A stretch of 64,000 nt of DNA from Candidatus Poribacteria bacterium (GCA_965207855.1 OZ242310.1:1811600-1875599); one strand, 5' to 3'. Counted from the first letter of the stretch, positions 406 to 55,268 are shown. A program made the numbers and translations. The notes: generated by a model from the sequence alone, not told the origin.

Positions 406-3400
406 CTACTTCCGAATCAGCATCTTCCGCGTTGATGTGAAATCGTCTGCTTTTAAAGTATAGAAATAGATACCACTCGCAACAGGTTCACCGACGTTAT
501 TTCTGCCATCCCAGTATGCCGCACGGCTACGACTCTGATAGATACCCGCAGGCATCAGCCCTAACGCCAACGTCCGAATCTTGGTGCCATTGACAGCATA
601 AATCGTCAAGGTAACCTTCGCAGGTTCGGAGAGCTGATACGGTATCCACGTCTCCGGATTGAAGGGGTTCGGATAGTTTGGCAACAGTGCTGTCTCTTCT
701 GGGATTAACAATGCTAAGAGACTTTGCAGGTAAGCAATGCCCTGTCGGAAGATAACAGAACCGTCATCTTCAATCTGGGCAAGTTTTATCCATGCCTGTA
801 TCATCGCAGGATCCAACCCCTCTACACTGTTCATAACAAGCATCGAAGGCGACGCTGCTACCGTTGACTCACCGAGATGTTGAGCAACAACGACGAGATC
901 CAAGATACTGATACTCCCATCACCGTTGACATCTGTTCGGGTGCCAGAGGACACTGCCTTTCCAAGGTCTTGTGCGATGAGAATCAAATCTAAAATGTTC
1001 ACGTGCCCATCGGTATTGACATCCCAACGCAGTCGGTGCTGCACTGCCAAAGCAACTTCATGAGGGCCAGCAGGGATTGCGCGACCTGTGACATCACCGA
1101 ATCGAAAGTTATTGAGCGTTATTTGTGTTTCACCCCCGGCTTTTGCTGCAAAGGTTACCGAGAGCAGCAGCCCTGTGCCACTGACCCCGTTTTTATTCTC
1201 TTGTGTTTCACTGAGACCTATAATCCTGCCCGTCCGATTATTAATCCTTCCTTTCTGAAATCGGGTTGCTTCCCCTGCCGACCCGAGAAAATAGCCTTTT
1301 CGGACTTCAGTTGCTTCAAGGTGTGCGGGATCAAAGTCGATGTCAAACTTCCATCCTGTTAAATCGGTTGCATCCTCTGCGTAGATGTCAAGTGTGAACG
1401 TATCACCTGTAGAGATCTCAACATTGGGCAGGACGTATCCGATGCCAGCAAAAGGTCGCACGGTATATTCCGCATCCGCTTGGAATCCAAAAAAGCCACT
1501 CCATCCGCCAGTTCGGTTTTCAACAGCGACTAATAATGTATTTCTTCCCTGTTTTAGGGTGACTGGGAAAGAGCTCTGGTAATTAGAGGCACCCCGCCCA
1601 GCGATCTCCTCACGAACAAGTTCGCCGTTGAGCCAGACCTTGACGCTGTCATCGCTGCCAACAAACATCCTTGTGTTCTGTTCTTTCGGTGTATTTAAGG
1701 CGATGAAGCCGTAAATGACACGGTCGTTTCCGTTCCAACCGAGAGATCTCGTCATATCGGTGATATTATTTCCACCGCGCTCGGAAATTTTCAGAGGTGT
1801 CCAAATATAGTCACCAAAGGTGTCTCCCGGTGCTACACCGGTAGTTGCGATGCGTTGTTCTGTAACATTACCACCACTCGCTTTCGCCAGCAGGTCTGTG
1901 GTTTTGTCAAGACGTTCATCCGGCACCAGCACCCATAGCCACGGACCGACTATTTTCGGACCGCCGCTATTTGGATCAACAGAGCGTGTGTCGGTGGTCT
2001 CAGTCTTCGCTAAAGCAGGGAGCATGTGTTCAAAAAACGCGCTATGCTCGTCTTTGGCGGCATCTACCCATGTGGGGAGTACTCCCAATCGTCGCTGGAG
2101 TTGTGCCTCGTAAAGGGAATCAGGAGAGACGTGGGTTCCGAATCCCTCGATGTAGGCATTGCGGGGAATAGCCCCCCCGAGCGTTTTGTATCCGATCAGG
2201 TTGCCCTGCGTGACCGCAAAACTCCCTCCACTGGGGGTCCATAGGTTAAAGGTGCTGCTATCGGCAACGTTGTTGTTCCAGCGGGTGTATCCATCGAGAT
2301 GATGTGGCAAGTTCCCTGGTGCCCCGCCGCACGCCTGATGGTTGTTGCTATTGTAATTATCGAACAGCGTATGACGAGGCTGTGCACCGTGCGTATCAGG
2401 ACCGTTTGTGGCGGGACCCTCAACATGCCATACAACGCATCCTGCCGAGTAGTGCGACACAGCCGCACCATGCCACATACCTCTGTCCGAATAATCCTCT
2501 AAGAAAGCATTAAAGCAATATGTTGAATAAGTAATAGTACCTAAGTTATGTCCAAACCTACCATCAACTATATTGCTAAGTGCCGAGCTACTATAAGACG
2601 CATGAATGCTAAATGTATCAATAACATTTGAAAACCTGCAACGCCGAATCCATGAATGGGCAGTATGCCAGAGCATGATACCGCCCCGTCCCTCTTGAAC
2701 AAGATGCTCGTAAGTTTCCTGTAGGTTGCCGTCTATGTGCAAGTCTTCAAAACCAATGCCGATCGTCATATCTCGCCAGTTGACGTTGAAGTTTGAATTG
2801 AGATGGGTCAGCACTGGTGCTTTGACATAAACCCGGTCTCCGACGATACGGTCAATTTCATGAATTTCGTTTACGTCAATGCCGTCTCGGATGTTCGTGT
2901 ATGCCTCAGACATCTCTGTCGTTGGTCGGGAAGAATATTGATGCCAGTCGTCTCCGAGCAGTCCATTCGCTCGGATTTCGATGAACCTGCGGTTTCTAAG
3001 ATGGCTGACATTCTCTACATCAAAGTGTCGTGTTCCCCTTGGGAAGGAGCCTTTGACGCGGGTAGACGAACCTTGACCGTTTGACCGCCAACGGGTCTTA
3101 AACAAATGCAGACCGTTTGTCAAGTCGTTGTGCATCTTGATGGTAGTTCCACCAGAGGCGGCACCTTCTGCGCCGCTGCCTCGAACGATGACGTTGTCCC
3201 CTGATACGATGATCTGGTCCGTCGGTTCACCGTCAAGGAGGACATCATAGTGTCCAGGTGGGAAAAACACAATACCGCCTTGGTGACCGGTATAAGCAGC
3301 ATCAAGGGCAGCTTTGATGCCCTCAGTGTCTGATTTCTCGTCATCCGGGACGGCTCCGTAATCGGTCACATCGAAAACTGTCACGGCAGAGACTTCGGGT

Positions 3401-3639
3401 ATTGCCGCCTCGCCGTTTTTGTAGCCTGTGTAGGAGTAGTCGATCAGATCAGGTGTTCCCGCAGGGACGGGTTCACCGATGAATTTTTTCCAGATGTTCG
3501 GCGTGATTTGTGCTGAGGCAAGCGGCAACAAGAGCAGGAACAACGATGCGGCGACTGACCAATTTCTCACTTTGTTAATCATCATTTGTTTGTTCTCCTT
3601 TCTTGAGATAGGTAAGGTAAAAGCAGAAAGTACCAACAA
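406..3639 (-). CDS. Large secreted multidomain protein with a right-handed beta-helix (pectate-lyase-3/GH28-like) N-domain, PA14-like domain, cohesin-like domain, two dockerin-type repeats and a Por/T9SS-type C-terminal sorting domain
   Basis: 1077-aa ORF. Signal peptide LLLLPLASAQ. 'VTDYGAVPDD...GGIVFFPPGHY' beta-helix N-terminus. 'VKVWLNGELV...LKQGRNTLLVAVEN' PA14-like. 'DVNTDGHVNILDLILIAQ' and 'DVNGDGSISILDLVVVAQ' dockerin repeats. C-terminal 'LLPNYPNPFNPETWIPYQL...YWDGRN...SGIYFYTL'. Confidence 0.75.
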   Translation of the reverse strand: MLVLSAFTLPISRKENKQMMINKVRNWSVAASLFLLLLPLASAQITPNIWKKFIGEPVPAGTPDLIDYSYTGYKNGEAAIPEVSAVTVFDVTDYGAVPDDEKSDTEGIKAALDAAYTGHQGGIVFFPPGHYDVLLDGEPTDQIIVSGDNVIVRGSGAEGAASGGTTIKMHNDLTNGLHLFKTRWRSNGQGSSTRVKGSFPRGTRHFDVENVSHLRNRRFIEIRANGLLGDDWHQYSSRPTTEMSEAYTNIRDGIDVNEIHEIDRIVGDRVYVKAPVLTHLNSNFNVNWRDMTIGIGFEDLHIDGNLQETYEHLVQEGRGGIMLWHTAHSWIRRCRFSNVIDTFSIHASYSSSALSNIVDGRFGHNLGTITYSTYCFNAFLEDYSDRGMWHGAAVSHYSAGCVVWHVEGPATNGPDTHGAQPRHTLFDNYNSNNHQACGGAPGNLPHHLDGYTRWNNNVADSSTFNLWTPSGGSFAVTQGNLIGYKTLGGAIPRNAYIEGFGTHVSPDSLYEAQLQRRLGVLPTWVDAAKDEHSAFFEHMLPALAKTETTDTRSVDPNSGGPKIVGPWLWVLVPDERLDKTTDLLAKASGGNVTEQRIATTGVAPGDTFGDYIWTPLKISERGGNNITDMTRSLGWNGNDRVIYGFIALNTPKEQNTRMFVGSDDSVKVWLNGELVREEIAGRGASNYQSSFPVTLKQGRNTLLVAVENRTGGWSGFFGFQADAEYTVRPFAGIGYVLPNVEISTGDTFTLDIYAEDATDLTGWKFDIDFDPAHLEATEVRKGYFLGSAGEATRFQKGRINNRTGRIIGLSETQENKNGVSGTGLLLSVTFAAKAGGETQITLNNFRFGDVTGRAIPAGPHEVALAVQHRLRWDVNTDGHVNILDLILIAQDLGKAVSSGTRTDVNGDGSISILDLVVVAQHLGESTVAASPSMLVMNSVEGLDPAMIQAWIKLAQIEDDGSVIFRQGIAYLQSLLALLIPEETALLPNYPNPFNPETWIPYQLSEPAKVTLTIYAVNGTKIRTLALGLMPAGIYQSRSRAAYWDGRNNVGEPVASGIYFYTLKADDFTSTRKMLIRK

Positions 3640-4080
3640 TCTGGGGAAATTCCCAGAGAAAATGCGTAAGTCCGATTATTAACAAAACGGACGTAATCAT
3701 CATCCAAATCGAGAGAATCATCATCGAAACCAAGATAAACAGTATTAAGACATATTTTTTTTAAATAAATAATAAATTTAATATTGACTTAATACCTATA
3801 TAAAATATAATTATGCCACAATTTAATTTAATTCACAAGTTAAATTTTATGTGAATTCCGAGTGATCAGAAATCCAGATGATGTTTAATCTCAATGTCGG
3901 ATGTGCTTGTGATTGGAAGATTATTGTGCTGTCAACTATGGCGAAATTTTACAACTTTGACTCACGTCTAAACCTCTTATCAAGGGGGATCTGACATATT
4001 GTTTTTTATCTTAAAATAAACAGTTGAGGACCTCGTCTTTTTGGCAAACACGACACCTTATCATTTTATCATTTTAAAGT

Positions 4081-4359: not shown

Positions 4360-5520
4360 ATGAATTTAAGAAAAATGGCAACGTTGGCATTTGTGGGTCT
4401 GCTCAGTGCTTTAACGATTCTGTTTTCGGGTTGCCAGCGGATGGCACCGGTGGTGCGTGATACCCAAACCATGCCGGTAATGGCTGAAGACATTCCTATC
4501 GGTATAGCCATCTCACTGACGGGACCTTTCGCCGAACCGTATGGGTTACCGATGCAACGCGGTCTTGAGTTGGCGCGTCAAGAGATTAATATGCGCAGCG
4601 ATACGCACCTGACGTTTATCACTGTGGACGCAGAAAGCACCCCAGCAGGTTCTGTTGCAGCCGTTGATCACTTGGTCGATCAAGGTGTTCCCGCTATCGT
4701 CGGGATCGGTATTTCAACGCATCTTGAGCAAGCTTTTCCGATAGCTCAGCGCAATGGTGTTGTCGCTTTTAGTCCGATCTCCTCGGCGACGGGCCTCAGC
4801 GCACTTGGCGATTATATCTTCCGTGCCGGTCTCACTGTGGGTGTGCTGAACTCAGATTGTACGGTCGTGACACACCAGATACTCAAGTATAAAACAGCGG
4901 CGCTGATATATGATATCTCGGACACTTACTCGAGAAGTAGCAACGCGACGTTTGAGGAAACGCTTGAGATACTCGGTGTCGAGATCCTAACGGTGGAAAC
5001 CTTTCGTTCGGGTGAAACCAATTTTTCTGAGCAACTCAGCAATATCAAGCGTCTGGCACCTGAAGCCGTCTTTGTCTCTACGCTCGCACCAGAGATGCCG
5101 AAGATTATAGCGCAAGCGCGGGAAATCGGGATCCCTGATGATGTTCACATTATCGTTCCTGATTTGACCAGAGACGAAGTTCAGAAAGCGGGACTTGCCG
5201 CCGAAGGTGTGATCACTTTTAGTGGGTGGTATAGTATGGCGGAGACACCTGGGAACCAAGCCTTCGTTAGCAACTATAAAGCGACGTACGGTATTGCGCC
5301 TGAACGCTGGGCAGCAGAAGCGTATGCAACACTGTATATTCTCGCTAACGCCATCGACAACGCCGGCTCGATGGACGCTGCGGCGATTCGCGATGCCTTG
5401 GCAGAGACGTGGGAGTATCCGACGATTTTAGGCAATTTCTCTTTCGACCCCGATGGTGAGGCAATATATGATCCGAATGTATTTATCGTCGAAGACGGAG
5501 AACTTCAGCTTTTTCAGTAG
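4360..5520 (+). CDS. ABC-transporter substrate-binding lipoprotein, PBP type 1 (LivK/branched-chain amino acid-binding family)
   Basis: 386 aa; lipobox LTILFSGC; family-typical 'AIVGIG...NGVVAFSPISSATGLS...IFRAG' pattern; RBS AAAGGAGA. Confidence 0.8.
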   Translation: MNLRKMATLAFVGLLSALTILFSGCQRMAPVVRDTQTMPVMAEDIPIGIAISLTGPFAEPYGLPMQRGLELARQEINMRSDTHLTFITVDAESTPAGSVAAVDHLVDQGVPAIVGIGISTHLEQAFPIAQRNGVVAFSPISSATGLSALGDYIFRAGLTVGVLNSDCTVVTHQILKYKTAALIYDISDTYSRSSNATFEETLEILGVEILTVETFRSGETNFSEQLSNIKRLAPEAVFVSTLAPEMPKIIAQAREIGIPDDVHIIVPDLTRDEVQKAGLAAEGVITFSGWYSMAETPGNQAFVSNYKATYGIAPERWAAEAYATLYILANAIDNAGSMDAAAIRDALAETWEYPTILGNFSFDPDGEAIYDPNVFIVEDGELQLFQ

Positions 5521-5638
5521 CATTAGTATCCGATGAATATAGGCAGGGCCTTTGCGATCGTAATGGGTGTGGGACAACGCGATTAGGCGAAATTTCCGCG
5601 AGTCCCACCCCCTTATTATCACTAAGCCCATAACAACA

Positions 5639-5670
5639 AAGGGGTGCTTGCGAAATCGCAGCACCCCTTC
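5639..5670. other. Near-perfect 12-bp-arm palindrome/hairpin between the two PBP1 paralogs
   Basis: aaaggggtgcttgcgaaatcgcagcaccccttc read directly. Lies inside the ORF-finder's N-terminal extension of the second PBP gene, which argues for the ATG at 5678 as the real start. Confidence 0.5.
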
Positions 5671-5677
5671 TAAGAAC

Positions 5678-6871
5678 ATGGAGAAGATTTTGAACGCTAA
5701 ATTTTTCGCTTTTACATTCCTTTTTGCTATTGCTCTGTTTCTCGTGGCTATGATGGGTTGCGAACGCATGGCAAAGGTTACCCATCCTATGACGCAGCGA
5801 GAAAGTCTGAGCAAAGAGGTCAGTATTGGTATTGTCCTACCACAGACAGGATACTTGGGACCGACTGAATTCGGTCCGGGTGCTTTGGTAATGGAGAATG
5901 GTTTTAACTTGGCACTTGAAGAGATCTACGCATCAGAAATGCCCGGTGATATAAGGTTCAAATTCATCGTTGAAGACGATATGAGCACTGTGGAGGGGGC
6001 GATTGCGGCCTTCAATAAGTTGATTCATCAAGACAAAGTCCCTGTTATTCTCGGGGTCTGGACATCACACGTTGCGCGTCATGTTTTTCCAATAGCACAG
6101 GAGAACGGAGTAGTTGCTTTTTCCCCTGTCGTTATCGCCACTGGCTTGACGGAGATAGGTGATTTTATTTTCCGTGCGAGTCATACGGCAAACCAACTGC
6201 TGCCTGAAGGGGTCAAGGCAACACACGAGAGACTTGGATATCAGCGGGTGGCGATGATCGCGGATAGTGTTGATTTAGCCTCTCGCAATGCCGATGAAGT
6301 GTTTAAGAAAACACTCACTCAAAACGGTGTTCGAGTGCTGACTACGGAGACTTTTGAAACCGGTGATACCGACTTTTCTGCTCAATTAACTCGGATAAAA
6401 GCGTCGAATCCGGAAGCGATTTTCGTTTCAGCGCAACAGATAGAGACGATTCACATTCTTAGGCAAGCGCGAGAAATCGGCATACCTAAAGATAAGCCGT
6501 TTATTTGTTTTATCCTCTCTATAGACGAAATCCAAAAATTAGGAGATGCCGCCGAGGGAGCGATAACTTTTACGGATTGGGTCAGCACGCAGGATACACC
6601 GGGAAATCGGGCTTTCGTTGAGAATTATACGGCGAAATACGGTATGGAACCCAGTGTCTGGGCTGCACAGCCGTATGCGGCTGTCTATATCCTCGCCGAA
6701 GCCATCAAAAATGCAGCATCCACCGATTCAGTAGGCATTCGGGACGCGCTCACTGAGATTAAAGATTTCGACACCATCTTAGGGAAGTTTTCTTTTGATG
6801 CCACAGGAGACGCTATTTATGATCCGGTTATCCTGATTGTTAAAGATGGCAAACTTCAGCACCTTGAGTAG
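5678..6871 (+). CDS. ABC-transporter substrate-binding lipoprotein, PBP type 1, tandem paralog of 4360-5520
   Basis: Internal ATG with signal peptide MEKILNAKFFAFTFLFAIALFLVAMMGC; collinear similarity to upstream paralog (ILGVWTSHVA / NGVVAFSPVVIATGLT / IFRASHTANQ). Confidence 0.8.
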   Translation: MEKILNAKFFAFTFLFAIALFLVAMMGCERMAKVTHPMTQRESLSKEVSIGIVLPQTGYLGPTEFGPGALVMENGFNLALEEIYASEMPGDIRFKFIVEDDMSTVEGAIAAFNKLIHQDKVPVILGVWTSHVARHVFPIAQENGVVAFSPVVIATGLTEIGDFIFRASHTANQLLPEGVKATHERLGYQRVAMIADSVDLASRNADEVFKKTLTQNGVRVLTTETFETGDTDFSAQLTRIKASNPEAIFVSAQQIETIHILRQAREIGIPKDKPFICFILSIDEIQKLGDAAEGAITFTDWVSTQDTPGNRAFVENYTAKYGMEPSVWAAQPYAAVYILAEAIKNAASTDSVGIRDALTEIKDFDTILGKFSFDATGDAIYDPVILIVKDGKLQHLE

Positions 6872-6903
6872 TCTTTGACGGGATAGGAACGATCCTCCAA
6901 GCC

Positions 6904-9900
6904 TTAGTGTGGATTCGGCGGAGATGTTTTTGGGAGTCTATAAACGCCCCGTCTGACTTTTTCGATCTCGCCGAGTTTTGTAAGTCGTGTGAGTTCCTTA
7001 TGTATTGCTTGTGGGTGCCCATCAATAGACGTTCTCATTTCAACCATTTCTTTCTCACCATCAGCCAGCAAAGACAAAATTTGTTCTCTGAAGGTTACGC
7101 GTGGGATGTTGCCGCCTCTGAGTTTCTTCAGCGTGCGGTTGGCTTGCCGTGAAGAGCATCCGAGTACACGTTCAACTTCAATTCTGGGGGTCTCGGCTGT
7201 TAGATTTTCGCGTTCGGCTTCAAACTGCTGGCGAACCGCGATTGTCTCTGTGAGTTTGTCAAGGCTGCCGGCTAACTCAAAATCTTCCCAATCGAAAAGA
7301 AGTGTTTCGGGTCTATCAGTGATGTTGGGAATTTCAAGGCTATTAATCAAAACAACCTTCTTATTGCGCAAGCGGTTCAATCCTGCCCGTCCGATAATCT
7401 CTGTGATTACGTCTGCAACGGTCTGTGTATAAATTCTCTGAATGCGTTCATCTTTATAGTGTTGGAACTCTATGTCTGCTTCATAACAAAGCGGTTCCTC
7501 ATCGTTCCCAAGTAAGATTTGCGCCCACCTCCACATGGCACCCGGTTCCCAATACGGCGTGCCAACGATCCAAACGACTTCTGCTGCTTCAAAAGCAGTC
7601 TCTAAATTGTTCTGGGTTTTAAATTCTGTCAATAAACAGACATTTTCTTTTTCTCTGATATCTCTCAATTGTTCTATGATTGGATCATAGGTAATGATAG
7701 CATGCTTAACGCTCGGATCCCTTTCAATCTCCGCACAGATACCGAGGAGAAAACGTTCTCCCATCTTAGACAACCCAATCACATCCCAAGTGCTGTCATA
7801 GTCTAACAGCGTTTTTAGGGTATGGACCCCAGACCGAATCTGAAAAACTTGGTTTCCTGTTACCCAAGGTGTCGGGCTGATATGGATAGTCTTGATTTCT
7901 TCATCTGGAAACGCTTTATGGAAATCTTGCTTAGACAACGTTGCTGACATCAAAAGCAGCCGCTTTATACCTGGGTGCAACACCGGTGGAACCCAAAACC
8001 ATAAAACATTGTTATACCATATCATCGGCGCATCGGCATCCCGGGAATAATGTGAAAGGAAACGCTTAAGTTGATGCCAAAACGTCCAGTTCGGATTCCG
8101 ATAGACGCTCGGAAATTCCCGAATCTTCTCGACTGTCCGCATATCCAAAATACCTAATCGGATTGCTTGTTCAATCGACATCGGGATCCTTACATCCTCG
8201 TCAAGCACAAAGGATTCGGGTTCAAAAATTGATAGTCCCCTCGCCATGAGTTTATCCGCAGTACTGATACTGAGAGGAATATGAGCGGAAACACCTCCTT
8301 CAAACTCAATAGTAAAACGCGACAATTCCTCTTCGGTCCCCTCATCAACGGTACTTTGCTCGATAACTCTACATCTCACATTGACTTGGCACATCTGTCT
8401 AATGAGTTCTGCTTCATGCTGTTGAAATGCTTCCGCCACCGTCCGGATCCGTTTGACAACAAGATTATCAGAGGTGTTTTCAATCTCCAAGGCGTACAAT
8501 AAAGTCCGCGCGAAGTTCCCCAACGCGCTTGTCTGCCAGTTTACACTCCACGCCTCTAATCTGTTCTTGGATATGTCACATTTCAAAAACATTTTATCCA
8601 TCTTCATTCCATCGATAATGTAAAGACGTTCTGTGTCATCAATCGGCTCAGGCAGGTCTTCTATCACTGCCAATTCTTGGGGATCCAAAAACGCTTGGGG
8701 GTGCCCAAATATTTGCGTTTTGGCACGTTGTAATTTAGGAGTCTGTGATAAGTAACCGCGCTCCTGACACGCTATATAAACGGGACACCCTGGACAGAGG
8801 ATTTTAGTCGAATCTACTTCCTTTTCCAGAAGTGCTATGAATCGCTCTGGATCCTCACAAACATTCCCGCGTTCAAAAGGGGTCTCCATCCGCGCCTCAA
8901 CGGGTATCTCCTTGACCTGATCCCATAGGAAACTTACGCGTCTCCAGCGGGCAACCGATGGTAAGTTTCGTCTTTGGAAGTGTCCCATCGCTTTTTCCAC
9001 TATTGTGAAGTCCGCACTAAAACTTGCTGCGTCTTCCCTGAGAAGATGTGATTCCACTTCATAGTTATGTCTTGCTCCCGTTTCGGCGACAAGTCCAATA
9101 ACACGGGCATCCGTGTGAAAGGCACTCTGTATCTGAGCGATATTCTTCTCAAGTGCCTCGTAAACCTTCTCGGTACCTTCTGGCTTCTGCAGCACAGAAG
9201 CGGGGCGTTTTATCCCCAATGGGCTAAGTTTTCCATCCCGCACGGAACGCACTTTCTCAGATACGGGCAATCCAGTCGCTCGGATCAGTGGCAGAATACC
9301 CGTATCGTCCCAGACATCTGTGATTCGCGTGTCCTCTGTAGGCAATCCAACACCCGACGTAGATGCCCGCAGCCATATCTCGCCATTGCGTTCCCATAGC
9401 AACACGTCTGTGCTGTCATCCCCAACAGGCTCTTTACGCCAGCAATGAAAACCGTTCTCGTTTCTGAGATAAGAAAATCCGCGTTTCAAAAACGCCTCTT
9501 TTGCAAGATCCAATTTATGCGATCCGAGCGATGGCGGCGGCGTGACAAGAACTTCCGAAGTAGATCCCGGTTTCTCTGTTCCAAGCAAATCGGGTTCGTG
9601 AAGTCTCTCCCGGAGTGTATCAATAGTTGTAAAGAGAACCTCTTTCGCAATCATGGGCGGATTCAACAGATCGCCTTGTAGGACCTCGTAACGCGCATCC
9701 CAAGGACTGTGCCCGGCTTCTCCAAGAATTTCAAGATATACATCCCGTTGATGCAGATTTTCCGATGTCGGCATGTCCTTGTAGATGTAAAACCTGTCAT
9801 GCTCGGTACCTGGATGCAGATAATCCGGGACTCTGCAAGAGAACCGCAACCCACCAGACTTTGTTAGCGTCAACAGTGGGTTTTTTGTAACACTAATAAG

Positions 9901-15709: not shown

Positions 15710-15733
15710 TTGTAGCACAAACTTTTAGTTTGG
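15710..15733 (+). repeat. REP-like GTAG-headed palindrome, core family copy (TTGTAGCACAAACTTTTAGTTTGG)
   Basis: Read directly; 66 bp downstream of ggt stop and 33 bp upstream of BMP gene start. Confidence 0.6.
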
Positions 15734-15765
15734 GACTTATCATAATGTTTTTTTAAGGAGCAGAC

Positions 15766-30351: not shown

Positions 30352-30363
30352 GTTCGCTCCTAA

Positions 30364-30400
30364 CTCGCCTACAAAATCTGTGGGCGAGTTTTTATTTTTA
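30364..30400 (+). terminator. Rho-independent terminator
   Basis: ctcgcctacaaaatctgtgggcgag followed by tttttattttt. Confidence 0.7.
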
Positions 30401-32043: not shown

Positions 32044-32148
32044 GCGGCTATACGACCTTTCATCGTAAACGCGTTTTTGTAAGCGCGCTTTACACCGTGC
32101 GCGGTTGAGAACCGCCAAATCAACTCTAATAATAAGGAGAATTTTGAA

Positions 32149-43098: not shown

Positions 43099-43953
43099 AT
43101 GAATAGCAGCATTATGGATAGGGTCGTGCATGCGATCCTCATAACAATCTTTTGTTTTTCAACAGCAGCGGTGTGGGCAGCGGATACTGTTCTTTTTGAA
43201 GAAGACTTTGAGGATGTACCACTCGAAGCAAGTATAATGGAACAGATTAAAGATAAAGATGTTTGGTCAGGCACGCCACCTGAGGGTTGGGAAATTACAA
43301 ACGAAAATCCGGATGACCTCGGCATGCCCGAGTGGAGAACTTGGGCAATCGTCGATCTTGAGTGGTGGACGCGAACAGCGGAAGACCAGAGGCGTAGTGA
43401 GTTCACAGGCGTACACAATGATGGCAAGGGCGTAGGGAAAGGCGCGGTCTCTGACCCTGATGAGTGGGACGATTGGGAGGGGAATGGCAACCCTGATGCT
43501 ATCAGTCGTTGGAATGGCCACTTAATTACCCCGCCCATTAAAATCAAGGGCGCGGCAGAGGGATCGCTCGTCTTAACGTTGGATTCGAGTTGGCGGCCCG
43601 AAGATACGCAGAACGCAGAGATAACAGTCAGCTTTGATGGCGACGCCGAAGAACGTATCTTATTCTTTCAGAGCGTCGGTATTGATGCAGGGGCGCACAC
43701 CCTCGTTACGATTCCTACTCTTAAACTAAAGGAAGATAAAATAAACGACGGAGAGCAGATAAACGAAACGTTAGAAATCCCGATTGACAACCCCGCCGGT
43801 GCCGCTGAGATGGTCATTAGTTTCGGGGTCATTGATGCACAGAATGATTGGTGGTGGGCGATAGATAATATAGAACTCATCAGCACTGCTTATGATGTAG
43901 AGCCGAAAAATAAATTAGCGGTGAGATGGGCAGAAATAAAACGCTCGCAATAG
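43099..43953 (+). CDS. Secreted hypothetical protein
   Basis: ATG at 43099 after AGGAGG; signal peptide HAILITIFCFSTAAVWAAD; no recognisable family. Confidence 0.6.
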   Translation: MNSSIMDRVVHAILITIFCFSTAAVWAADTVLFEEDFEDVPLEASIMEQIKDKDVWSGTPPEGWEITNENPDDLGMPEWRTWAIVDLEWWTRTAEDQRRSEFTGVHNDGKGVGKGAVSDPDEWDDWEGNGNPDAISRWNGHLITPPIKIKGAAEGSLVLTLDSSWRPEDTQNAEITVSFDGDAEERILFFQSVGIDAGAHTLVTIPTLKLKEDKINDGEQINETLEIPIDNPAGAAEMVISFGVIDAQNDWWWAIDNIELISTAYDVEPKNKLAVRWAEIKRSQ

Positions 43954-43990
43954 CCTTCTTTGCTATATTGTTAGCGACAAAGCAGTTCCC

Positions 43991-44015
43991 TTGTAGCACA
44001 AACTGTTAGTTTGTG
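43991..44015 (+). repeat. REP-like GTAG-headed palindrome, core family copy (TTGTAGCACAAACTGTTAGTTTGTG)
   Basis: Perfect 8-bp arms CACAAACT/AGTTTGTG; 38 bp after stop of 43099-43953. Confidence 0.6.
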
Positions 44016-44136
44016 GAATTTCGGGATGAACTGCCCAAAGGTTTCAATCTTTAAATTGAACGCACGTTAAAAAGAGTAATGCGCTTCCCGCAAGTGCATT
44101 GCTCTTTTATGCCTTACTGACTTTTAGGAGAAAGTC

Positions 44137-45189
44137 ATGAAAATTTTAGTCACAGGTGGCACAGGTCGCATTGGATCCAATCTCGTTAAAAAATTATTGG
44201 AAAAAGGACACACTGTCCGCAGCTTCGTTTATCTGGGTGATGTCAATCGTGTCGGAAAATGGGACGGGACGGAAAACGTTGAGACCGTTCTCGGCGATTT
44301 GCGTGAATATGAAGATGTTAAAAAAGCCGTTGAAGGGGTTGATGCCATCTATCATATTGCCGCCGCCTTTGGTGGGCCTTTTGATAACCGCCAGTACTTA
44401 GCAATCAACGGTATGGGGACCCTCAACATTTTGGAATGTGTTCGGGAATTCAATCCCAACATCCACCGTTTTGTTTATGCCTGTACAGAGGCAATTTATT
44501 GGGAACTCACCCAGAGAGGACGACTTTTCGATCAACACATCACCGAGGACATGGTCGCCAAATACCATCACATGCCCTATTTCCTTACCAAATGGATTGG
44601 TGAAGAACTCTGCATGACCTATCACCACCAGTATGGCGTTCCTTCAACGGTCTTCAGGTTCACAACCGTGATTGAGCCGAGCGAATATCTCAACGAGGAC
44701 GGTTTGCCGAGGCAATTTATTTTCAGTCCGATCTACAATCGGTACAAGAATTATACAGGGAACGATCCCGCTGAATTGGAGGCTGCAAATACGGTTAAAG
44801 GTCTTTGGGATGGACAAGAGAAATTCATACTCAAACGCAACCTTGACGGACGACCTTACAAGGAACATTTCACCGATGTACGGGATATTGTGCAAGGATT
44901 GGTTTTAGGGATTGAGAAGGATGCCGCTGTTGGCGAAGAATTCACGCTCGGTGGGAATGGCGTTTTCAAACATGAAGAGGTTATCCCTTACCTATGTGAA
45001 CGCTACCAGATGGGCTCCGTTGATGTCCAGCTCCCGCAACCCCTCTATTTTGAATTTGATTTGAGCAAAATCAAAACGCTGTTGGACTATAAACCGCAAC
45101 ACGATTTAGCGAGTATTCTTGACGCTGCTGAAGCGATGCGACGTGGTGAAGATGTCGGTATCATTCCGACGGGTGTTCGATGGAGTTAA
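44137..45189 (+). CDS. NAD-dependent epimerase/dehydratase (extended SDR) family protein
   Basis: 'MKILVTGGTGRIGSNLVKKLLEKGHTV' Rossmann; 'YACTEAIY' catalytic YxxxK region. Confidence 0.85.
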   Translation: MKILVTGGTGRIGSNLVKKLLEKGHTVRSFVYLGDVNRVGKWDGTENVETVLGDLREYEDVKKAVEGVDAIYHIAAAFGGPFDNRQYLAINGMGTLNILECVREFNPNIHRFVYACTEAIYWELTQRGRLFDQHITEDMVAKYHHMPYFLTKWIGEELCMTYHHQYGVPSTVFRFTTVIEPSEYLNEDGLPRQFIFSPIYNRYKNYTGNDPAELEAANTVKGLWDGQEKFILKRNLDGRPYKEHFTDVRDIVQGLVLGIEKDAAVGEEFTLGGNGVFKHEEVIPYLCERYQMGSVDVQLPQPLYFEFDLSKIKTLLDYKPQHDLASILDAAEAMRRGEDVGIIPTGVRWS

Positions 45190-45245
45190 GGCTTTTCCAG
45201 TAATTCCGCTTGATATTTTGTAGGTAATTGGGTTAAACTTATTGC

Positions 45246-46898
45246 ATGAAAGTGATTTTTCAAACCCTCTTTCTTTATGCCTTTGCTTTCCTCGTCTTCG
45301 CCTTTTCGACCCTGAATTGCACTAAAGGCACGCCGACAACGACTCGGTATGTCCCAGCAAGTACGAAGCACCTTGATCGGCATATTAGCGCTGTGCTAAA
45401 AAGAGAAGGGCTCCAACCCTCTAAGATGTCTGAAGATGCAGAATTTCTCCGTCGTATTCATCTCGATATGACCGGAAAAATCCCAACCCCCGAAGAAGTT
45501 CTCGACTTTCTCAAAGACGGCTCTTCAAACAAGCATCAGAGAAAAATTGACGACCTGCTCCAAAGCGAAGCATCTATCGACTATTGGACAGGAGTGTGGG
45601 TGAACTGGCTAATTGGTAGGCGGCGTGATAACGATGAGCAGCGCATTGGATTAGCATCTTGGGTGCGGGATGCCTTGACGAAAAATATGCCGTACAATCA
45701 GTTCGTCCAAGAGCTCATCGCAGCGGATGGTGAACTTCGTGACAACGGTGCTGGCAATTATATCCTCCGCTATGAACGTTCCCCAGTTGTCCTAACCTCA
45801 CAGAGCTCACGACTTTTCTTAGGTCTCCCGATGCAATGTGCAGAGTGCCACGATCATAAGACAGAAGCGTGGCTACAAGAAGATTTCTACGGTGTTGCTG
45901 CCTTTTTTACGGGGATTGAGAGTGAGCAGAAAGGGAACATCTGGGCGGTGAATTCGATAGGCGATGAGAGGCGAATACGGAATTATCTGATTACCAACAG
46001 ACCTCGAGGATCTATTTGGGTAAGCAGACTTAATACAGAAGTCTTTCCACGTTTCCTTGATGGAACTGAATACAATGGGGCTGCTATCGAAAAACGCAAA
46101 GCACTCGCCCAGTGGATAACGGACAAATCAAACCCATATTTTAGCCGCGCACTCGTGAACCGGATATGGAAACACTTTATGGGACGCGCATTCGTCGAAC
46201 CGCTTGATGGCTTCGGGGAGGAGAATCTGCCCACCAATCCTGCGCTATTGGACTGGCTTGCAAAAGATTTCATCATTCACGGATATAACTTGCAGCACCT
46301 CATGCGAACCATCTTGAATTCTGAGGCTTACCAGCGCACTTCAGAAACAAATGAAAGCAACAAAGACGATGAACTTTACTATTCACACGCGTACGTCAAA
46401 CCGCTCAGTGCCGAGCAGTTCTTCTATTCTATGCTCCAAGCCACCGGTTTTGAAAGACTCCAACAGGGCAAGTTGGACGGTCTCACAAAACGAGGCGGCG
46501 AAGACCGCAGAGGCGTGCTACGGACGCTTGAGCAGAGAAAGCGCGATCACCTCAGAAAGTTTCTGTTTCTCCTTGATAACGGCGAGATGGAAGAAATCGA
46601 AGCCTTCAACGGTACTGTTCCACAGGCACTTATGATGATTAATGGGAACATGGTGAATGATAGCGCGAACCACGAAGATCGCGGTAGTTTTATAAATTAT
46701 GTCCTTGAAAAATGGCGCGACCCGATTGAACGGATGGAGTATATCTACCTCAGTGTTCTTTCTCGCCTGCCGACTTCTCAAGAGAAAACCTATTTCCAAC
46801 GGTATTTAGAACGGAGTCTGTATCGGAACAAAGACTTGGCTTACGAGGATCTCTACTGGGTGTTGCTAAATTCTGCTGAGTTTTCGCTGAATCATTAG
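45246..46898 (+). CDS. DUF1549 (PSD1-type, Planctomycete-style) domain protein
   Basis: 'CAECHDHKTEAW' matches the C-x-x-C-H-D-H-K motif of DUF1549; signal peptide. Confidence 0.6.
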   Translation: MKVIFQTLFLYAFAFLVFAFSTLNCTKGTPTTTRYVPASTKHLDRHISAVLKREGLQPSKMSEDAEFLRRIHLDMTGKIPTPEEVLDFLKDGSSNKHQRKIDDLLQSEASIDYWTGVWVNWLIGRRRDNDEQRIGLASWVRDALTKNMPYNQFVQELIAADGELRDNGAGNYILRYERSPVVLTSQSSRLFLGLPMQCAECHDHKTEAWLQEDFYGVAAFFTGIESEQKGNIWAVNSIGDERRIRNYLITNRPRGSIWVSRLNTEVFPRFLDGTEYNGAAIEKRKALAQWITDKSNPYFSRALVNRIWKHFMGRAFVEPLDGFGEENLPTNPALLDWLAKDFIIHGYNLQHLMRTILNSEAYQRTSETNESNKDDELYYSHAYVKPLSAEQFFYSMLQATGFERLQQGKLDGLTKRGGEDRRGVLRTLEQRKRDHLRKFLFLLDNGEMEEIEAFNGTVPQALMMINGNMVNDSANHEDRGSFINYVLEKWRDPIERMEYIYLSVLSRLPTSQEKTYFQRYLERSLYRNKDLAYEDLYWVLLNSAEFSLNH

Positions 46899-46901
46899 TT
46901 T

Positions 46902-46973
46902 GCACAGCCTAACAGGTTATGCTACAAAAGAAAAAGACATAGGGATGCACAGCCTAACAGGCTATGCTACAAC
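46902..46973 (-). repeat. Tandem pair of REP-like GTAG-headed palindromes (inverted orientation relative to the other copies)
   Basis: tgcacagcctaacaggttatgctacaa at 46902-46928 and tgcacagcctaacaggctatgctacaa at 46947-46973. Reverse complement is TTGTAGCATAACCTGTTAGGCTGTGCA. Confidence 0.6.
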
Positions 46974-46999
46974 GGATACAAGTAAAGGAGAACCTTATT

Positions 47000-47722
47000 A
47001 TGAAAAAATGTATCTTGTTCATCACTATCTGTGCAATCGCCTTCGGAATCGCGACACTCGCGACCGCGCAGACCTATTTTGAGGATAATTTCGATGACGC
47101 AAAAGCATCTGAGGATAAATGGGTGCCACTCTTCGGAGAATGGGAATTCGCAGATGATCAATACCATCAGCTCCAGAATTCCGTTAACTGCATGAGCGTC
47201 GTTGCAGATGATTTTTGGGATGACACTTGGAGCGAATATACATACGAAGTCCGAGGCAGCAAAGTCAGTGGTGCCGAAGGGTTCCTGATTATGTTCCGCT
47301 GTCAAGGTTTGATGCAACCGCGTGGACAGGCACTCGAAGATCATCCACCGCGTATGGAAAACCTCAAACCCTCATTGGAATACTGGTGGAACCTCGGCGG
47401 TTGGGGCAATACGCGCTCACAGGTTGAATCATGGGGCGGCAAAGCCGGTGCCAATAGCAACCACACCATCAAAGATAAAGATTGGTATCACATCAAGATC
47501 GTCAACACACCTGATAGTTACACTGTCATTCTTGACGATGAAGAAGTCGCACAGGTGGACGATGATACCGAAGGCGGCGTTGGACGTATCGGGCTCGCAA
47601 CATGGGCAACGGTCGCGAAATATGACGATGTCATCGTCTATGGACCTGATGGACCCTCGTTGCCAGTTGACGCGAAAAGTAAACTCGCGACCACTTGGGC
47701 ACACCTCAAATCTACGAGATAG
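47000..47722 (+). CDS. Secreted DUF1080-like (3-keto-disaccharide hydrolase / concanavalin-like) protein
   Basis: ATG 47000 after AAAGGAGA; signal peptide; 'WYHIKIVNTPDSYTVILDDEEVAQVDD...GRIGLATWATVAKYDDVIV' beta-jellyroll pattern. Confidence 0.5.
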   Translation: MKKCILFITICAIAFGIATLATAQTYFEDNFDDAKASEDKWVPLFGEWEFADDQYHQLQNSVNCMSVVADDFWDDTWSEYTYEVRGSKVSGAEGFLIMFRCQGLMQPRGQALEDHPPRMENLKPSLEYWWNLGGWGNTRSQVESWGGKAGANSNHTIKDKDWYHIKIVNTPDSYTVILDDEEVAQVDDDTEGGVGRIGLATWATVAKYDDVIVYGPDGPSLPVDAKSKLATTWAHLKSTR

Positions 47723-47735
47723 GAATGGACAAAAA

Positions 47736-48905
47736 ATGTTGAGTTATTTCTTACCGCCACGCATTGAATTTGGAGATGGCACCATCCAAAATTTGGGCGA
47801 ACATGTCAAAGCGTTTGATGGCAAAAAGCCGCTTTTAGTGAGCGATGCGGGTGTTATTGATGCCGGTATTCTCGCCAAGGCGATAGAGGCATTGGACGCA
47901 GTCGGTTTAGCGCATGCCATCTATTCAGACATCGAACCGAATCCGACAGACATCAGCATCACAGACGGTGTGGAAGTTTACAAAACAGAAGCGTGTGATG
48001 TCGTTATTGCTGTCGGTGGCGGAAGCGTGATGGACGCCGCGAAAGCCGTTCGCCTCCTAACGACACATGAACCGCCGTTGGAGCCTTACTACGCTGATGT
48101 TGGTGGACTTGAGCGGATCCGTGGCGATATGCCGCCTTTAATATGCGTTCCAACGACTGCTGGTACGGGTAGTGAAGTCTCACAAGGCGCGATTATTACA
48201 GATACATCGCTACAGACGACCGACCGTTGGCGAAAGCGCGCCATCGTTACGCCGTTCAACATGGCGAACATCGCACTCCTTGACCCAGGTATAACGCTCG
48301 GCATGCCACCGGCACTCACTGCTGCGACAGGTATGGATGCGATCACCCATGGGATTGAGGCATACACAGCGACGAAATATCACCCGATTGCTGAGGGGGT
48401 CGCATTGCAGGCACTCAAAATATTGAGTGCGAATATCCAGCAGGTCTATCACAACGGTGAAGATGGAACCGCACGCGGGGAAATGCTCCTCGGATCGTGC
48501 ATGGCGGCGTTTTCCTTCCAGAAAGGTCTCGGTGCCGTCCACTCGTTAGCGCATCAGCTCTCGACAGATGCCCCCATCCCGCACGGTATAGCGAACGCCA
48601 TCCTTCTGCCTCCCGTTATGGCGTTTAACTTTGCTCACGCGACCGAGAAATACGCCGAAGTCGCACGTGCCTTAGGCATAGACACCACTGACATGGATAC
48701 CGACGAAGCCGGGAATGCTGCTATTGATAAGATTAGGGAGTTTAATGTTGAACTGAGTATGCCCACAGGACTTGGGGCTGCTGGTTTAGATCGAAAAAAG
48801 ATTCCGAAACTCGGCGCGGATGCAATGCTTGATCATTGTCACAAATTCAATCCGAGGGAGTGTACGGAAGCCGATATGGTTGCGTTGTTTGAGGCGGCAT
48901 ATTAG
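47736..48905 (+). CDS. Iron-containing alcohol dehydrogenase
   Basis: 'LVSDAGVIDAGI', 'VIAVGGGSVMDAAKAV', 'ICVPTTAGTGSEV', 'HSLAHQL' motifs. Confidence 0.85.
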   Translation: MLSYFLPPRIEFGDGTIQNLGEHVKAFDGKKPLLVSDAGVIDAGILAKAIEALDAVGLAHAIYSDIEPNPTDISITDGVEVYKTEACDVVIAVGGGSVMDAAKAVRLLTTHEPPLEPYYADVGGLERIRGDMPPLICVPTTAGTGSEVSQGAIITDTSLQTTDRWRKRAIVTPFNMANIALLDPGITLGMPPALTAATGMDAITHGIEAYTATKYHPIAEGVALQALKILSANIQQVYHNGEDGTARGEMLLGSCMAAFSFQKGLGAVHSLAHQLSTDAPIPHGIANAILLPPVMAFNFAHATEKYAEVARALGIDTTDMDTDEAGNAAIDKIREFNVELSMPTGLGAAGLDRKKIPKLGADAMLDHCHKFNPRECTEADMVALFEAAY

Positions 48906-51908: not shown

Positions 51909-52748
51909 TTAAGAGAAGGTTTGTCTTTGAAATTCTACAGGTGTCAGATACCCTAACGCCGAATGCGGGCGTTTCTCGTTATACACCTGTTGTAAAAAAT
52001 AACCGATACGCGTTTGAACATCCGAGAGATTCTCATAGTCATTGAGGTAGACTTCTTCTTCCTTGAGGGTTCGGATCAACCTTTCGGCGTATCCGTTCTC
52101 CCAAGGACATCCTCTGCGAGCGACTGAAATCTGAATACCATGTTCTTTGAGCGTCGAGATATAAGCTGTTGAAAGATACTGCGCGCCTTGATCGGAGTGA
52201 TGAATCTCTGGAACCCTGTCGTCTAAAGCTTGCTCTAAGGGTTCCAAGGTCAGAGATTGCGTCAAGTGTTGACTGAGTTTCCACCCTCTTATCATGCGGG
52301 TGAAGACATCCATGAGCAGAGCGACATAGATGAAGCGGTGCTTGAGGCGGACGTAGGTGATATCGCCCACCCACACCTGATCGCATCGACAAACATCAAG
52401 CGTCTTGAGGTGATTCCGCCAGGGCTGCGGACCGTCAGTAGAGTGGGTCGTTTGACACGCACGTTTGACGGCAACCGACAAGTTCGCTTCTTTCATCAAG
52501 CGGGCGACGCGTTTATACCCAACGGTGTGTCCTTCGGACACCAACACCTTCGTGATACGTCTATACCCGTAGGTCGGGTGTGCCGCCGCTAACCGCTGTA
52601 TTTCGGCGCGCAGAACTTCTTGAGAAGCGTCGATTCTCGGTTGATAATAGAAGGTGCTCTTGTTGAAACCTAGCACCTCGCAAATCTGCCGCATGGAATA
52701 CTCCTTGCGCAACGTCTCAACGAGACAGCGCTGTTCAGATGGACTCAA
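51909..52748 (-). CDS. IS3-family transposase OrfB (DDE integrase core)
   Basis: 'YGYRRITKVL', 'WVGDITYV', 'HSDQGAQYLS', 'YNEKRPHSALGYLTPVEF' rve-domain motifs. Confidence 0.9.
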   Translation of the reverse strand: MSPSEQRCLVETLRKEYSMRQICEVLGFNKSTFYYQPRIDASQEVLRAEIQRLAAAHPTYGYRRITKVLVSEGHTVGYKRVARLMKEANLSVAVKRACQTTHSTDGPQPWRNHLKTLDVCRCDQVWVGDITYVRLKHRFIYVALLMDVFTRMIRGWKLSQHLTQSLTLEPLEQALDDRVPEIHHSDQGAQYLSTAYISTLKEHGIQISVARRGCPWENGYAERLIRTLKEEEVYLNDYENLSDVQTRIGYFLQQVYNEKRPHSALGYLTPVEFQRQTFS

Positions 52749-53032
52749 TCCAAGAAAGTCAATGCTTTTTTTTGGATTTCCAGTGCCAGCGTCAACCGGC
52801 CAACGAGCTGCTCAAGTTGAGCGATCCGCGCCGCTGACTCGCTTGATGACTTATCGGTCTCTGACTCAAAGAAGGTTTCGGCATTTTCAAGAAGTTGGCG
52901 TTTCCATGTGGAGACTTGGTTTTCGCTGAGGTTATGTCGTCGACACAGTTCTGCTTGTGAACTTTCACCGCGGAGGGCCTCAAGCACAACTGCTGCTTTA
53001 AACTTAGCAGTGAATTTTCTGCGTTTCGCCAT
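52745..53032 (-). CDS. IS3-family transposase OrfA (HTH); -1 frameshift partner of OrfB
   Basis: 'MAKRRKFTAKFKAAVVLEAL...ELCRRHNLSENQVSTWKRQ'; on coding strand ccAAAAAAAGc slippery heptamer at ~52757-52765. Confidence 0.85.
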   Translation of the reverse strand: MAKRRKFTAKFKAAVVLEALRGESSQAELCRRHNLSENQVSTWKRQLLENAETFFESETDKSSSESAARIAQLEQLVGRLTLALEIQKKALTFLD

Positions 53033-53212
53033 CGGAAGGCTCCTTTCAAATATAGATTATCATTGTAGCACAATCTTATATTAGAGAGTGGTCTAAATTT
53101 CCGGTGGCAGTACAGTTCTTTATTCTCCGCTTCCTTCGCACTTTCTAAGACCATTTTGTTTTCAATGAGTGCCTTTCACCTCTCAATGTTCTTTATTTTT
53201 CAGATTTGCAAC

Positions 53213-53227
53213 TGGCACGCTTTTTGC
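53213..53227 (+). promoter_or_regulatory. Consensus sigma54 promoter TGGCACG-N4-TTGCT upstream of WD40 gene
   Basis: actggcacgctttttgctc; GG-N10-GC; 18/20 identical to the promoter at 51009. Confidence 0.5.
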
Positions 53228-53492: not shown

Positions 53493-53518
53493 TTGTAGCA
53501 TAGACTGTTAGTCTGTGC
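53493..53518 (+). repeat. REP-like GTAG-headed palindrome, core family copy (TTGTAGCATAGACTGTTAGTCTGTGC)
   Basis: Arms CATAGACT/AGTCTGTG with compensatory change relative to copies at 15710 and 43991. Confidence 0.6.
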
Positions 53519-55182: not shown

Positions 55183-55207
55183 TTGTAGGTGCGGTTTGGA
55201 ACCGCAT
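55183..55207 (+). repeat. REP-like GTAG-headed palindrome with variant stem (TTGTAG GTGCGGTT TGG AACCGCAT)
   Basis: Read directly; 21 bp after WD40 gene stop. Confidence 0.5.
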
Positions 55208-55268
55208 CGGACAAGACATTCAGAAACATTACATTTATCCACAATTTGAAATTGGATGTGGATTATGG

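Follow-up and report, generated by a model that had tools for sequence, protein, structure and literature searches.

The closest described systems are the GTAG-tagged repetitive extragenic palindromes (REPs), a superfamily of 24 families known from more than 80 species in eight phyla that include the Proteobacteria, Cyanobacteria, Chloroflexi and PVC (Di Nocera, De Gregorio and Rocco, 2013, PMC3733652). Their units have stems of 6–9 bp and loops of 2–3 nt, contain G.T pairs, form subfamilies with complementary stems, and lie between genes as singletons, dimers or clusters; the dimers can be of the HH, TT or HT kind and can be heterodimers, and one genome may hold several families, each with its own REPtron (the gene of a REP-associated tyrosine transposase, or RAYT, between its cognate REPs), and some REPtrons have been lost by deletion (PMC3733652). 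The enzymes of these REPtrons, the RAYTs, are classified as TnpA-Y1, class 2 of which carries the signature of a HuH motif together with Y---NP (Quentin et al., 2018, PMC6006769). In the co-crystal of the Escherichia coli enzyme the residues that contact GTAG are W94, Q95, E100 (D in some subclasses, as in 2.5 and 2.7), H101 and R104, and the enzymes of subclasses 2.4 and 2.7, which span Cyanobacteria, Bacteroidetes and various phyla, are flanked by canonical GT[AG]G REPs (PMC6006769).

Poribacteria are absent from the host list of the first of these studies and are not mentioned in the second, and when we searched the literature for papers linking Poribacteria with palindromic or extragenic repeats, we found only CRISPR or unrelated papers. 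The first-pass annotation of the DNA analyzed here had expected such repeats to be new in this lineage. The REP/RAYT pairing is a known kind of bacterial repeat system, with GTAG REPs and REPtrons already recorded over the range of species and phyla given above (PMC3733652; PMC6006769), and only the Poribacteria instance was previously undescribed.

Five GTAG-headed hairpins in a Poribacteria chromosome

We examined a 64-kb stretch of Candidatus Poribacteria DNA, referred to below as the window. It is chromosomal and bacterial, and among its ordinary genes are those for PSCyt2/PSD1 proteins, a gamma-glutamyltranspeptidase and a PnrA-like binding protein. Five short repeats in it are very probably REPs of the GTAG superfamily, the cognate DNA of a class-2 HuH/Tyr (Y1) RAYT, or TnpA-REP. 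All five exist within 1 nt of where the first-pass annotation had placed them and display the anatomy it had described, in which TTGTAG leads into an 8-bp arm that is joined to its complement by a loop of GTT or TTT, and the chance expectation for the five-copy motif in the window was zero (0 of 100 dinucleotide-preserving shuffles gave a match). Against R1, a covariance model that we built from 82 non-redundant Poribacteria copies, the five scored 41.7–46.9 bits, while the next match in the window reached 12 bits.

The focal copy, a singleton at 43991–44015 (+), reads TTGTAG-CACAAACT-GTT-AGTTTGTG and has a perfect 8-bp stem (46.9 bits; −6.7 kcal/mol, z −4.65). Two further singletons lie on the same strand. 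The copy at 15710–15734 (+) (TTGTAG-CACAAACT-TTT-AGTTTGGG, with one A.G mismatch; 41.7 bits; −4.1 kcal/mol, z −3.5) follows the gamma-glutamyltranspeptidase stop codon by 65 bp and precedes the start of a Bmp/PnrA-like gene by 31 bp, and the copy at 53493–53517 (+) (TTGTAG-CATAGACT-GTT-AGTCTGTG, with a T.G wobble; 45.1 bits; −6.1 kcal/mol) has an IS3-family element on one side and a WD40-repeat gene on the other. The remaining two make up a head-to-tail pair with a 45-bp period on the reverse strand. Its first unit, 46903–46927 (−), whose stem contains an A.C mismatch (45.5 bits), begins 4 bp past the stop codon of a PSCyt2/PSD1 gene, a position conserved in two related loci (L087 and L071), and its second unit, 46948–46972 (−; 46.4 bits), lies 27 bp upstream of the start of a DUF1080-type gene at 47000. 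An ORF-list gene start at 46964 overlaps this second unit; the start that is conserved among orthologues and has a ribosome-binding site is the one at 47000, and with that start all five copies are intergenic, as had been claimed.

Folded as single-stranded DNA, the GTAG strand gave a predicted hairpin of −4.1 to −7.5 kcal/mol (z −3.3 to −4.7), with the exception of the mismatched copy at 46903 (−2.5 kcal/mol, z about 0). The hairpins are not followed by a T-run, which agrees with the earlier view that they are not intrinsic terminators.

A scan for GTAG followed by any hairpin returned a sixth TTGTAG hairpin in the window, at 55183–55209 (+), 20 bp past the stop codon of the WD40 gene. This unit, TTGTAG-GTGCGGTT-TGG-AACCGCAT (−7.5 kcal/mol), is perfect and has the same geometry, with a stem sequence unrelated to that of the first family, and we calculated that about 0.01 chance matches of its kind would be expected over the 33 TTGTAG sites of the window. 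It is the one window copy of a second GTAG REP family, (C)CGGTAGGTGCGGTTTGSAACCGCACCGG.

Several other features of the window were recorded alongside the repeats. The IS3-family insertion sequence (51909–53154, −) has an orfB with rve/HTH_21 domains and an upstream orfA-like ORF and is unrelated to the REPs; a model match inside it, at 53058–53097, scored only 10 bits and was taken as chance. Between this element and the REP at 53493 there is a sigma-54 promoter-like site of textbook form, TGGCACG-N4-TTGCT (53213–53227, +). An intrinsic terminator at about 30355–30395 (+), CTCGCCTAC...GTGGGCGAG and then a T-run, follows a gene that ends at 30351 and is conserved in a syntenic locus (L001). Lastly, a hairpin-like stretch at 32070–32125, CCGTGCGCGGTTGAGAACCGCC, which is conserved on the reverse strand of L001, resembles a degenerate unit of the second family and lies just upstream of the site at which an extra REP block is present in L001.

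Stem covariation, spread and arrangement of the unit

We scanned public genomes, one genome per species, with the pattern TTGTAGCAYANNCTNTTAGNNTGKG and found the 25-nt unit in at least 119 stretches; among the matches listed, nearly all came from Candidatus Poribacteria, in MAGs or complete chromosomes that represent many species, and the over-representation for which a test had been proposed was thereby found outside the window as well. The loci are scattered along complete Poribacteria chromosomes of 5–6 Mb. The density was 78 copies per Mb in the window and 20 extra clusters per Mb, beyond the seed, in the fetched loci, which together suggest a copy number on the order of 100–450 per genome. 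The best identity between window DNA and any fetched locus was about 77–88%.

In the window, the arms had been reported to change together (AAACT/AGTTT, AGACT/AGTCT and AGCCT/AGGCT), and examination of more copies yielded more covariation of this kind. Over 82 unique copies, 97% of cells were paired in the true register, compared with 21–42% in slid registers, and none of 500 shuffles reached the observed covariation score. Pair 17-25 occurred as all four Watson–Crick types (AU32/CG18/UA18/GC11) and pair 16-26 as AU49/GC18/CG2/UA1, and in 148 exact-pattern copies we saw nine or more different complementary combinations of dinucleotides at the two free stem positions; the remaining six stem pairs were fixed by the search pattern and hence uninformative on covariation. 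GTAG was likewise invariant by construction in pattern matches, but it also turned up in partner units that were identified independently and beside the genes of RAYT relatives. The conserved stretch is bounded at about −3 and +26.

The five window copies comprise four different stem variants, and the unit at 46948–46972 differs from its orthologue in L087 and L071 by a compensatory change (AGCCT/AGGCT against AGGCT/AGCCT). We attribute such compensatory variants to selection that acts on the shape of the hairpin and on the guide, not on the sequence of the stem, and in this the earlier preference for a hairpin over a dimeric operator was borne out. T.G pairs are tolerated, as had been noted, and roughly half the copies have such a wobble at stem pair 3. 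Owing to these wobbles, pairing was 96.6% on the GTAG strand and 90.3% on its complement, an asymmetry of the sort expected for an element that is read on one strand.

The unit shares with the described GTAG REPs an unpaired terminal GTAG at the foot of the stem, an 8-bp stem, a 3-nt loop and G.T pairs (PMC3733652). Unlike E. coli REPs, which are bulged, it is a simple 8-bp stem without a bulge. We compared its sequence type, GTAGCAYANNCTGTTAGNNTGTG, with the text and text supplements of the superfamily study and did not find it in these (PMC3733652).

As for location, 147 of 153 copies (about 96%) were intergenic, and of 122 clusters 89 had co-directional neighboring genes, 16 convergent and 14 divergent ones, while 3 were intragenic. 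Under a tolerant definition we counted 214 units in the fetched loci, nearly half of them (98) singletons. Adjacent units formed approximately 27 dimers with GTAG outside, 37 head-to-tail neighbor pairs and a single pair with GTAG inside. The inverted pairs that the first-pass annotation had proposed to look for thus exist, with GTAG termini outside and spacers of 9–12 bp. They are laid out as TTGTAG-hairpin, a 9–12 nt spacer and hairpin-CTACAA, and most combine a type A unit (GTAGCAY...) and a type B unit (GTAGCGC...) in a heterodimer, the partner usually being a distinct subtype, GTAGCGCAAACT...GCG. The exact pattern detects only direct neighbor pairs, and the covariance model was needed for the divergent, weaker-scoring type-B partners on the opposite strand. 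The longest array, at 1418–1727 (+) of L064, consists of ten head-to-tail units (TTGTAGCACATTCTGTTAGATTGTG) at an exact 31-bp period with an 8-bp spacer, GCYTCTTT, and has a T.T mismatch at stem pair 5 in every unit.

This arrangement matches the described families in part. The inverted dimers correspond to their HH form (GTAG outside) and, as there, are often heterodimers; the spacers are unusually short and uniform in comparison, and head-to-tail neighbors, which are absent or rare in most of the genomes described, are common in Poribacteria, where they outnumber inverted pairs and form arrays of up to ten units (PMC3733652). The pairing of two REP subtypes in dimers recalls the Y and Z REPs of E. 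coli BIMEs. As in the REPINs of Pseudomonas fluorescens, two inverted REPs could fold into one long hairpin, and units persist across related species (Bertels and Rainey, 2011, PMC3116915). Unlike those REPINs, the Poribacteria units are so often singletons (98 of 214), with many others in direct arrays, that the doublet is not obviously the replicating unit, and no dominant master sequence is evident, as the number of stem variants in the window illustrates (PMC3116915).

The same 25-nt REP type, inverted dimers included, was also seen in Cytophagales/Cytophagia MAGs (L058, L080 and L082; 30–34% GC) and in an Anaerolineae MAG (L012 and L117; 61% GC). Because the loci have a median GC content of 46%, we regard these hosts as genuinely different genomes, not mis-binned contigs, and the copies in other phyla suggest either that the REPtron has spread horizontally or that the recognition code is very conserved. 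Three IMG/VR contigs classified as viral (L201, L202 and L203) contain a single exact copy of the motif each; these could be prophage regions or misclassified Poribacteria DNA.

RAYT genes of relatives and the empty locus of the window

A tblastn search of the fetched loci with E. coli RayT matched ORFs in four of them (L087, L071, L030 and L112). On the complete Poribacteria chromosome of L087, the gene for the protein that we call RAYT1 (5005–5757; 250 aa) forms a REPtron with (−) units at 4931–4955 and 4966–4990, the nearer of which ends 14 bp before the ATG, and a (+) unit at 5777–5801, 19 bp past the stop codon; farther on past the gene there is a (−) array of four units. L071, from another species, has the same syntenic layout and a RAYT1 protein that is 90% identical. 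In two Poribacteria species, then, a Y1 (HuH/Tyr) transposase gene of the kind that the first-pass annotation had proposed to look for is flanked by inverted copies of the exact motif.

RAYT1, which is named "hypothetical protein" at NCBI, matched the NCBIfam model REP_Tyr_transpos (NF047646, "REP-associated tyrosine transposase") with E = 4e-18 and 65.7 bits, below the curated cutoff of 80, and scored 20.3 on Pfam Y1_Tnp, below the cutoff of 23; E. coli RayT itself gave no Pfam Y1_Tnp match at E ≤ 0.001. Judged by its sequence, RAYT1 is a divergent member of the family. Its sole significant match among solved structures in the PDB was E. coli TnpA-REP (4ER8), at E = 0.002 with the single sequence and E = 1.8e-9 with a profile of the clade (27 members). 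Over these 27 members the motifs NHVH, FWQRESYDH..R and Y...NPV (Y218-x3-NPV) are invariant or near-invariant. NHVH and Y218 align to H59/H61 and Y115 of the E. coli enzyme, and FWQRESYDHVIRD of RAYT1 aligns to IWQPRFWEHAIRN, with W, Q, D, H and R all conserved at the GTAG-contact positions.

RAYT1 therefore resembles E. coli TnpA-REP in keeping the HuH motif, the catalytic tyrosine in Y---NP and the W-Q...[ED]-H..R segment, and in having a gene bracketed by inverted cognate REPs. It differs from that protein of 165 aa in its length, in an N-terminal insertion of approximately 65 aa after the first beta-strand region and in a longer linker between HuH and Tyr. The combination of NHVH, WQ and YVLNNP would fit subclass 2.4 or 2.7, and not the enterobacterial subclass 2.2. 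The RAYT gene of P. fluorescens is single-copy, syntenic and apparently vertically inherited (PMC3116915), and in Poribacteria we observed such synteny in two species.

A metagenome scan returned 379 relatives of RAYT1 at 33–82% identity. For 63 of them 200 bp or more was available on each flank; a GTAG-hairpin lay within 200 bp in 41 of these, compared with 10 of 644 control windows (1.6%), and in 21 such hairpins bracketed the gene in inverted orientation. Seven family-1 units lie upstream of the closest relative (82% identical). The flanking hairpins of many relatives are of a related type, GTAGCGCAG.CT-loop-AG.CTGC, and distant relatives have, for example, GTAG-CGCAGGCT-GTT-AGCCTGC; that such hairpins stand beside RAYT relatives only 35–45% identical suggests a deeply conserved recognition code between enzyme and hairpin. 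In L123, family-1 units at 3459 and 3546 (−) fall within the coding region of a RAYT relative (56% identical; match 3001–3812), an arrangement reminiscent of the "REP inserted in tnpAREP" feature of subclass 2.4 (PMC6006769).

The second REP family has an enzyme of its own. RAYT2 (L030, region 6874–7723; 181 aa) is bracketed by CCGGTAGGTGCGGTTTGSAACCGCACCGG units, the family to which the window hairpin at 55183 belongs, and it scored 126.6 bits on REP_Tyr_transpos, above the cutoff, and passed the Pfam threshold too.

Neither RAYT1 nor RAYT2 has a homolog encoded anywhere in the 64-kb window. Positions 43741–48905 are syntenic with L087 and L071 (82% identity in the product of the DUF1080-type gene), and the gap between the PSD1 and DUF1080-type genes (46899–46999), which is the empty home locus of the RAYT, contains only two REPs in the window. 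At this point L087 (3258–6066) and L071 (567–3273) have approximately 2.7 kb that is absent from the window and holds a MutH-like gene (PF02976), a gene for an Mrr-like restriction endonuclease (Mrr_cat, PF04471), RAYT1 and clusters of REPs; the first two of these genes place the REPtron beside genes of the nuclease/defence type. The home locus of the window either lost its RAYT or never had one, and the window copies are either non-autonomous, dependent on a RAYT elsewhere in the genome, or relics.

Comparison of orthologous sites revealed both constancy and difference. The REP pair 46903/46948 is held in position in the window, L087 and L071, and this positional conservation across three species amounts to persistence rather than to recent movement. 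L087 lacks the focal copy (43991) at its orthologous intergenic site, and L001 has REP blocks between conserved flanks at sites that have no REP in the window. These presence/absence differences, seen between species approximately 80% identical in DNA, could also come from deletion.

By analogy with the biochemistry of E. coli TnpA-REP, we infer that the RAYT would bind, cleave and mobilize REP DNA in single-stranded form. A unit of approximately 27 nt, made up of the 5′ (TT)GTAG guide and, directly after it, the 8-bp hairpin with its 3-nt loop, would fold when the GTAG strand is single-stranded, for example in the lagging-strand template at a replication fork. The enzyme may then bind the hairpin and read GTAG through the conserved W-Q...D-H..R segment, and its catalytic tyrosine would cut and rejoin the DNA. 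The expected outcome would be that units are spread through intergenic DNA, or kept there, whether singly, in inverted dimers or in tandem arrays. Against the REP/RAYT explanation as a whole we counted the lack of a RAYT gene in the window, the scores of RAYT1 below curated cutoffs and its N-terminal insertion, the common head-to-tail arrays, the bias toward the sense strand described below, and the positional conservation in three species.

Competing readings and what the repeats mean

An orientation bias, for which a test had been proposed, is present: in singletons between co-directional genes the GTAG strand was the sense strand in 42 cases and antisense in 15 (p < 0.001), and with arrays counted in, which dilute the bias, 56 units had the same orientation and 42 the opposite. 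Such a bias is what would be seen if the hairpins were mainly RNA elements, that is, stabilizers of mRNA 3′ ends, processing sites or sites for RNA-binding proteins, that are selected by the host and whose link with RAYT is historical or incidental. In RNA the many T.G pairs would become G.U wobbles, some copies keep their position in three species and show a compensatory change of the stem there, and many GTAG REPs have been argued to be transcribed and to act as RNA (PMC3733652). We nevertheless consider this quite unlikely. Antisense copies make up 26% of the singletons, to which the window pair 46903/46948 is added; 3′ ends of genes are not preferred, the median distances to the preceding stop codon and the following start being 116 and 118 bp; and no Rfam family was found anywhere in the window at gathering thresholds. 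An RNA role also leaves unexplained the conserved unpaired GTAG, the inverted dimers, the ten-unit arrays and the REPtron layout found across the clade.

The sense bias itself can be read in two ways. Y1 transposases have a lagging-strand-template bias. Gene orientation correlates with local GC skew (rho 0.59, in complete assemblies that are not rotated to a common origin), and the bias is for this reason as much expected from a preference for the lagging-strand template as from selection on transcripts; it fits either equally. A secondary, exapted role in RNA is possible and would be compatible with the main explanation, in which the repeats are REPs served by a RAYT.

We judged it highly improbable that the copies are ends or miniature derivatives of IS200/IS605 elements, or a degenerate CRISPR-like array. 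The ends of IS200/IS605 elements are likewise sub-terminal hairpins read by a Y1 transposase, but the protein associated with our repeats has the class-2 Y---NP and not the Y---Q of IS200 transposases (PMC6006769), its flanking hairpins are inverted whereas IS200/IS605 ends share one orientation, there is no adjacent tnpB, and the insertion sequence in the window belongs to the unrelated IS3 family. The regular arrays at some loci do resemble CRISPR arrays, except that their spacers are a constant 8 bp (GCYTCTTT) and CRISPR spacers are variable and 30–40 bp long.

That the palindrome is the operator of a dimeric transcription factor, or TTGTAG a −35-like promoter element, is scarcely credible: three window copies do lie 31–122 bp upstream of co-oriented genes, and TTG is common to TTGTAG and the sigma-70 −35 hexamer, but the arms covary through all four Watson–Crick pairs with the stem sequence free, where a base-reading protein would conserve sequence, the element is asymmetric, with only one side bearing GTAG and T.G pairs confined to a single strand, a conserved −10-like hexamer is lacking at +17, and copies occur antisense to both neighbors, between convergent genes, in back-to-back dimers and in arrays of 31-bp period. 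Operators of the CRP/FNR or LacI type, a sigma-70 promoter and an intrinsic terminator were considered and rejected, as were phage N4-type hairpin promoters and nut sites, given the chromosomal nature of the window and the many genomes that share the family.

The REP/RAYT explanation can be carried further, into a version that we regard as speculative and rather unlikely in its full extent. The Poribacteria system would then be a long-lived, largely vertical and phylum-wide one, sharing one REP type with the Cytophagales and Anaerolineae MAGs; its units would multiply chiefly as head-to-tail arrays whose spacers are fixed at 8 bp, a route that has not been described for REPINs; the sense bias would reflect exaptation of the units as transcript hairpins; and the repeats would persist where the RAYT locus has been emptied.

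The finding opens no new category of biology, and its peculiarities are modest: the head-to-tail arrays, the short and uniform dimer spacers, the breadth across a phylum together with a few distant MAGs, the sense bias and the RAYT-less home locus in the window. What it does is extend the REP/RAYT partnership to Candidatus Poribacteria, an uncultivated phylum of sponge symbionts, and supply a covariance model and a clear reference REPtron locus for the annotation of Poribacteria genomes. It also accounts for a class of hairpins, conserved and intergenic, that might have been taken for regulatory sites or CRISPR-like arrays, and REP units of this kind may break short-read MAG assemblies. The syntenic loci with and without a RAYT offer a natural comparison for the persistence of REPs.
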